Positions 3,219 to 3,484 of a DNA stretch of 3,484 nt are shown here, piece after piece. The notes beneath the pieces were generated by a model that had not been told where the DNA came from, did not search any database, and saw only the letters and a program-made list of their open reading frames with translations. Source of the stretch: Escherichia coli (GTDB taxonomy: Bacteria; Pseudomonadota; Gammaproteobacteria; Enterobacterales; Enterobacteriaceae); assembly GCF_003334385.1 (NCBI RefSeq), contig NZ_QOWN01000093.1; one strand, 5' to 3'. The translations under genes and the position numbers were made by a program. The stretch's first letter is position 1, and each line of letters starts with the position of its first letter.

Positions 3219-3484
3219 TTTATGCTGTAATCAACGTGATACTGCCAGCATACCGCACCAGACTGACATTCTGGTACCCTCCCCAGACTCATTACTCCCG
3301 TGCAACCACTTAACCGGTCTCTCAGCAATATCGCCTTAACGCTACGTTTAGTTATCCGACACCGGATGTCCGATGCCATTGCGACAACCTGAAGGTAACC
3401 AGCCAGTTGTAGTGGCACACTAAATTTGGCCACCTGATGAAAGGTGATATTCTCACCACAACACAAAACAGGTGACTTAATGAA

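Follow-up and report, generated by a model that had tools for sequence, protein, structure and literature searches.

At the right-hand edge of the 3,484-nt stretch of Escherichia coli DNA analysed here (contig NZ_QOWN01000093.1, hereafter the window), some 260 bp separate a gene resembling hha from an ATG at 3480-3482 that faces the other way and runs out of the window. Is this the intergenic region of two divergent native genes, or something else? A preliminary description took it as a single unit, ending in the ribosome-binding site and start codon of a gene divergent from hha. Comparison with complete genomes divides that unit in two: positions 3205-3407 are island DNA, and positions 3408-3484 are insertion-sequence DNA. 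The latter are almost certainly the left end of an intact 1258-bp insertion sequence (IS) of the IS3 family, an ISEc31-like isoform in the IS911-like group. The gene at the edge is its orfA. The description was right about this gene and its orientation, but the letters of the window alone could not show that it is no native partner of hha; since orfA belongs to a mobile element that begins at 3408, its divergent arrangement with hha is an accident of insertion. The features discussed below are collected in Table 1.

Table 1. Features at the right-hand end of the window (coordinates are window positions)
Feature	Position	Strand	Remarks
Hha-family pseudogene	3006..3204	-	Ancestral ATG 3204-3202; 14-bp deletion between 3186 and 3185
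Native non-coding island DNA	3205..3404	.	Collinear with Nissle 1917 up to window position 3408
Target-site duplication, left copy AGT	3405..3407	.	One copy in the Nissle empty site, two around the G1/2 insert
Left terminal inverted repeat (IRL) TGTAGTGGCACACTAAATTTGGCCAC	3408..3433	+	20/26 match to the right repeat; terminal 5'-TG
Candidate weak resident promoter	3426..3453	+	-35 TTGGCC (3426-3431), 16-nt spacer, -10 TATTCT (3448-3453)
Leader inverted repeats	3431..3474	+	Outer CACCTG 3431-3436/CAGGTG 3469-3474; inner GGTGA 3443-3447/TCACC 3453-3457
orfA Shine-Dalgarno AGGTGA	3470..3475	+	GGTG 5-10 nt before ATG nearly invariant in aligned leaders
orfA, first five bases (ATGAA)	3480..3484	+	PGAP CDS start; gene runs out of the window

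Window positions 2900-3484 were used as a megablast query against 5426 complete E. coli genomes. Fourteen of these match the query over its full length at 100% identity, and are annotated with 'hha' followed by 'IS3 family transposase'. In about 725 others, including Nissle 1917, the match breaks off at query base 509, corresponding to window position 3408. A second query specific to the junction found flank and insert joined in exactly 14 of the 5426 genomes. E. coli G1/2 (locus L001), which is 99.9% identical to the entire window, was used to extend the sequence rightward, and Nissle 1917 (L002) supplies the empty site, CCAGCC-AGT-TAGCTG, with AGT present once. Compared with this uninterrupted locus, G1/2 carries at L001 6509-7766 a 1258-bp insert with AGT on each side, a target-site duplication of the short length (3-4 bp) typical of the IS3 family. 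No uninterrupted locus contains 3408-3484, and the right end of the element, followed by its AGT, is present on the other side. The insertion point, in non-coding island DNA, is 204 bp upstream of where the hha pseudogene ancestrally started.

Five more copies at unrelated sites have identical termini and differing flanks, such that the ends are invariant at six independent insertions; duplications of GTT and ATA were found at two other independent copies. We found no argument against the identification as an insertion sequence. No matching 3-bp duplication flanks three of the six copies examined (L006, L007 and L009). In strains CD45 and NWU_1 the copies have a common right flank, within a truncated ypjA/ehaD autotransporter gene, and different left flanks, a pattern that suggests IS-mediated deletions or recombination between copies.

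The right terminal inverted repeat (IRR), read inward, is TGTAGTGGTCAAGTAATATTGGCCAC, and the insert ends with the reverse complement of TGTAGTGGTCAAGTAATATTGGCCAC. IRL and IRR have the inner block TTGGCCAC in common, and together they form the imperfect terminal inverted repeats, 5'-TG...CA-3', of IS3-family elements. An inverted repeat of ∼12 bp was also noticed across the junction of flank and IS, with arms at 3375-3386 (GCCATTGCGACAAC) and 3407-3418 (GTTGTAGTGGC); the RNA fold across this junction is unusually stable (z = -2.63). A junction hairpin acting as a target-site signal was rejected, since nothing comparable is seen where this IS has inserted elsewhere, and the repeat is probably due to chance.

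The reading frame opening at 3480 is long and conserved, as the preliminary description anticipated. In G1/2 a RefSeq CDS described as 'IS3 family transposase, programmed frameshift' occupies L001 6581..7758, and L001 position 6581 is exactly window position 3480. The frame meets no early stop: OrfA has 103 aa, and the ORF is conserved in thousands of genomes. A slippery heptamer, A AAA AAG, lies at IS nucleotide 333, and orfB, overlapping orfA, is open in the -1 frame to IS nucleotide 1250. As read from the sequence, and in line with the PGAP note 'programmed frameshift', the heptamer would join orfA to orfB by a -1 frameshift, giving a 392-aa transposase (OrfAB) with helix-turn-helix (HTH) and DDE domains.

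The predicted 392-aa product has the sequence of WP_085968792.1, a protein present in several genomes. It scores 360.6 bits against NCBIfam NF033516 'IS3 family transposase', for which the cut-off is 160, covering profile positions 1-368 of 369. Pfam domains found on OrfAB are rve (8.5e-26), HTH_Tnp_1 (3.9e-11), HTH_21 (2.3e-8) and also rve_3. A DDE triad was located by eye (D in WCGDITY, D in HSDQGSQY and E in SPMERFF), with 35 residues between the second D and the E. The protein has, in other words, the DD35E catalytic domain and N-terminal HTH of the family, above the curated family threshold. Taken with the terminal repeats, the target-site duplication and the overlapping frames, all of the features that define the IS3 family at the level of sequence are present.

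The element is common in the species: it occurs in 2416 of the 5426 E. coli genomes, and 938 records have a copy at ≥99% identity. Named by PGAP labels, it would be an ISEc31-like member of the IS911-like group. DNA identity to the copies that PGAP labels ISEc31 is 92.5-92.9% over the full 1258 bp, and the transposase falls into a common 90%-identity cluster with an ISEc31-named protein. ISfinder counts elements as isoforms above about 90% DNA and/or 95% protein identity to the reference. The present element and the ISEc31-labelled copies agree in length (1258 bp), termini (TGTAGTGG...CCACTACA), leader, orfA start region and frameshift layout. They differ by ∼7.5% DNA divergence and in their annotation: here PGAP gives the name only as 'IS3 family transposase' and begins the CDS at the ATG rather than at an upstream GTG.

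More distantly, OrfA is 61% identical to the PGAP-labelled proteins of IS911, ISLad1 and ISEc52, and 51% identical to that of IS222. At 61% OrfA identity the element is not near-identical to IS911, but is a different element of the same subgroup. Like IS911 (1250 bp, against 1258 bp here), it has imperfect TG...CA inverted repeats with the inner block TTGGCCACCTG, a 3-bp duplication, an OrfA of ∼100 aa with an HTH and a leucine-zipper region, and an A AAA AAG -1 frameshift leading to a DDE OrfAB. The leader layout CACCTG...GAGGTGA-loop-TCACCTC...CAGGTG is likewise common to both, although the inner hairpin is 5 bp here and 7 bp in IS911. Of the two, IS911 is the experimentally studied model.

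In that model the inverted repeats are 36 bp, OrfA is 100 aa and OrfAB is made by -1 frameshifting; the N-terminal domain of the transposase binds the subterminal part of the repeats (PMC2909936). A weak promoter, pIRL, has been reported at the left end of IS911 (PMC2909936, PMC3299598). In the present element a weak resident promoter probably lies at 3426-3453; the candidate agrees with the consensus at 8 of 12 positions, which is below the scan threshold, so that it is absent from the consensus scan. IS2 and IS911 transpose by a two-step circle pathway in which the abutted ends form a strong junction promoter (PMC3299598). By analogy with what is published on those two elements, the present one would move by copy-out/paste-in via a circle, and joining of its ends would place TTGACC of IRR 17 bp from CACACT of IRL, creating a junction promoter. 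The spacing follows from counting TTGACC, 6 nt, a 3-bp spacer and 8 nt of IRL before CACACT, and the geometry of the abutted ends is consistent with such a promoter.

A circular 'plasmid' record from a cat E. coli isolate (CP148522.1, 1-1278; L010) consists of the 1258-bp IS plus 20 bp (TCTGGCTTTTCTGACAGCCA), which sit between IRR and IRL. Either an IS circle was captured here, one whose spacer is unusually long, or the record is an assembly artefact.

The CACCTG/CAGGTG pair singled out in the preliminary description lies precisely where it was placed, and is kept in related insertion sequences. The hexamer by itself is unremarkable, because CACCTG occurs seven times in the window, counting both strands, against 2.4 expected. 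What draws attention is its position. The first half of CACCTG is formed by the final three bases of IRL, where the TTGGCCAC block ends, and the second half lies just outside, while CAGGTG overlaps the Shine-Dalgarno (SD) of orfA; between them stands an inner hairpin, GGTGA-TATTC-TCACC, at 3443-3457.

Relatives on plasmids, and 80 loci on viral contigs that encode OrfA homologues, supplied 33 distinct leaders of the IS911/ISEc31/IS222 group. In 33/33 the inner end of IRL and the SD can form an outer helix of 5 bp or more, and all have an inner hairpin of 5-9 bp as well. The outer helix is mostly CACCTG/CAGGTG. Departures are CACCTA/TAGGTG in L055, a double change from G:C to A:T; GTCACC/GGTGAT in L066; GTCACTT/AGGTGAC in L072; and CGGACACC/GGTGTCTG in four IS222-group elements. 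The inner hairpin takes the forms GGTGA/TCACC, GGCGA/TCGCC, GGTGG/CCACC and GGTGT/ACAC. Helices whose flanks vary in this way by lineage argue for a conserved RNA structure.

In a MAFFT alignment of 32 distinct sequences, 85.1% of cells were paired, compared with 32-49% when the partners were slid. Three IS222-group rows were out of register for the inner hairpin in this alignment, and the helices are therefore listed per sequence. No covariation above column shuffles was detected in the leader helices of the 32 sequences (85.1% paired, 85.0% when shuffled). The IS leader alone has a predicted fold no more stable than shuffles (z = -0.41).

How might such pairing act? On transcripts entering from outside, CACCTG would pair with the CAGGTG that overlaps the SD, as its conservation suggests, and only transcription initiated within the element would then allow orfA to be translated. 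RNAs made from the weak resident promoter or the circle junction promoter would begin farther downstream or adopt another fold, and would be translated. SD-sequestering leader structures are known in IS10 and IS50. The arrangement here resembles those two elements and IS200 in having an inverted repeat near the left end, with one arm covering the SD of the transposase gene. In IS200, sequestration of the SD in the leader has been shown (PMC4513863), and the effect proposed here is the same: limited translation, especially of transcripts entering from outside. The helix here is only 6 bp, and its proposed function is suggested by conservation.

There is, however, a reading in which the complementarity has no function in RNA, and is the by-product of two motifs constrained separately. 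One would be the inner end of IRL with its neighbouring bases, which the transposase may bind. The other would be the SD: being complementary to 16S rRNA, it will look like the reverse complement of any site similar to CACCT. Each outer arm would then have a reason of its own for conservation, and the TTGGCCAC block is indeed present in IRR also. The column shuffles, which reproduce the observed pairing and covariation, agree with this, as does a leader fold of ordinary stability, and the CACC/GGTG core varies too little to test. Yet the helix goes past that shared core, and does so on different sides in different lineages: by CTG:CAG in the IS911/ISEc31 group, whose IRR reads GGT in place of CTG; by CGGA:TCTG in the IS222 group; by GT:AC/AT in L066 and L072; and by the double change of L055. 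For 13 of 17 relatives, moreover, a leader truncated at the 5′ end is predicted to leave the SD more accessible than the full-length leader does. For the present isoform the thermodynamic prediction is equivocal: the SD is predicted to be paired even in 5′-truncated transcripts, because it can also pair with TCACC inside orfA.

Weighing these points, we give the by-product explanation an equal chance of being right or wrong. Sequestration of the SD on read-through transcripts, taken by itself, is a reasonable hypothesis that we would likewise regard as evenly balanced. The fuller proposal is that the IS911/ISEc31/IS222 leader is a conserved two-helix translational gate, in which the inner part of IRL (CACCTG, or CGGACACC in IS222-like elements) pairs with the orfA SD on transcripts from flanking DNA; this we advance tentatively, as possible rather than probable. 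No description of leader structure or SD sequestration in IS911 was found in the searchable literature, and the conserved pairing of IRL with the SD in IS911-like leaders would seem to be only a mildly new point.

Instead of the ATG, translation of orfA could begin at an in-frame GTG at 3444-3446, which would add 12 residues. The frame from this GTG has no stop before 3480, and IS911 is likewise open in the corresponding frame. PGAP moreover uses the GTG for the ISEc31-labelled copies (404 aa), and 404-aa members occur in the protein cluster. But no suitably placed SD precedes the GTG, and the 12-codon extension has in-frame stops in a Vibrio relative and in L056-type relatives. Given these stops in the remoter relatives, the start that is conserved is the ATG, together with GGTG 5-10 nt upstream. 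For the present isoform PGAP itself picks the ATG. The GTG is thus judged unlikely as a start codon on this comparison of leaders, whereas AGGTGA stands at a workable SD distance from the ATG at 3480; the preliminary description had proposed just these two as ribosome-binding site and start. In PGAP records the CDS starts at the GTG, element nucleotide 37 (window 3444), in L008 (position 337) and L009 (position 337), and at the ATG, nucleotide 73, in L001 (position 6581).

On the other side of the junction, the Hha-like gene is a decayed copy. PGAP annotates hha at 3006-3185 as a pseudogene, 'incomplete, missing N-terminus'. Aligned with the intact copy of E. coli M15, the ancestral ORF proves to have lost 14 bp immediately behind its sixth codon; because this deletion shifts the frame from the ancestral ATG, the Hha frame lacks a start codon. 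The conceptual translation scores 97.2 bits against NF008191 Hha (cut-off 90), and with the frameshift and no in-frame start there is no intact Hha ORF of ∼70 aa. In OkiPb01696 the triplet corresponding to 3230-3228, TTA here, is TTG, and it reopens a 74-aa ORF, which PGAP accepts as hha. The region to the right of the pseudogene is thus no functional promoter region for two divergent genes: it is upstream of a defunct gene on the left, and on the right it includes one end of an IS.

Further to the left, window positions 1-940 hold the C-terminal part of an IS66-family tnpC. Tandem pairs of IS66 tnpC genes are present in both G1/2 (L001 1-4038) and Nissle. In the latter, one member of the pair is cut short at precisely the point at which the other starts, and the locus is thus a pile-up of insertion sequences.

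The DNA between the pseudogene and the element, 3205-3404, is part of an unannotated gap of ∼918 bp that separates hha from an AlpA-like HTH gene in uninterrupted islands. In Nissle, where hha is likewise a pseudogene, the gap is L002 6287-7203; the stretch that receives the IS carries no annotation and only unconvincing ORFs. The ∼918-bp Nissle gap has no Rfam match and no promoter- or terminator-like site, and promoter and terminator scans of the equivalents of 3150-3600 and of the 1-kb Nissle gap returned nothing. Sub-threshold matches to the Rfam family CLRN1-AS1, a human lncRNA, were dismissed as spurious, both at window positions 3225-3299 on the minus strand (17 bits against a gathering score of 48, E 0.33) and on the uninterrupted Nissle gap (E 0.56). 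The preliminary description saw no credible ORFs in the region, and this holds: three overlapping ORFs of 60-83 aa match no NCBIfam family, nor do the ORFs overlapping 3131-3466. The 83-aa ORF (3215-3466, minus strand) spans the junction of flank and IS and was therefore created by the insertion. Homology to distant island variants such as that of M15 stops near window position 3325. Positions 3219-3404 are ordinary non-coding island DNA with no detectable feature.

The same stretch contains the direct repeat CCAGACT that had also been remarked upon, with its first copy at 3258-3264 as described and its second at 3283-3289, one base to the left of where it was placed. Could it have a role in the promoter region of hha, as a regulatory repeat or a binding site? 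The window holds three copies of CCAGACT against 0.39 expected, a count reached in 2/200 shuffles, and the match extends over 12 nt (83%) at a distance of 25 nt. A regulatory role is nevertheless very improbable. The second copy exists only through G3286, which is A in Nissle 1917, OkiPb01696 and M15, and the two copies are not both conserved in the M15 or OkiPb01696 islands; the downstream gene is a pseudogene and the scan found no promoter-like site. Since it depends on this SNP, the repeat is private to the lineage and best read as chance.

Least credible of all, to the point of being extremely improbable, is the reading of ATG 3480 as a native chromosomal gene, the divergent partner of hha, with 3219-3479 as their shared regulatory region: the orientation is divergent and both ribosome-binding site and ATG are present, but the empty site of Nissle 1917 already refutes it, ∼725 complete genomes have the same locus without the bases from 3408 onward, the next gene in uninterrupted genomes is the AlpA-like HTH gene ∼0.9 kb away, and the gene at 3480 belongs to a 1258-bp unit, bounded by terminal repeats and a target duplication, that recurs at many unrelated sites.

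What had been observed at this edge of the window was thus essentially right, save for one coordinate off by one and one chance repeat, and the interpretation placed on it is supported, though incomplete. Behind it stands an element of a familiar kind, already annotated in RefSeq and in that sense ordinary. For annotation, the edge of the window should be given as an IS3-family element from 3408 rather than as a native gene paired with hha, and the hha copy beside it as decayed; the insertion itself is a marker of a small group of 14 complete genomes. Of broader interest is only the conserved pairing of IRL with the ribosome-binding site in IS911-like leaders, which offers a hypothesis for how elements of this group may avoid activation by neighbouring transcription.
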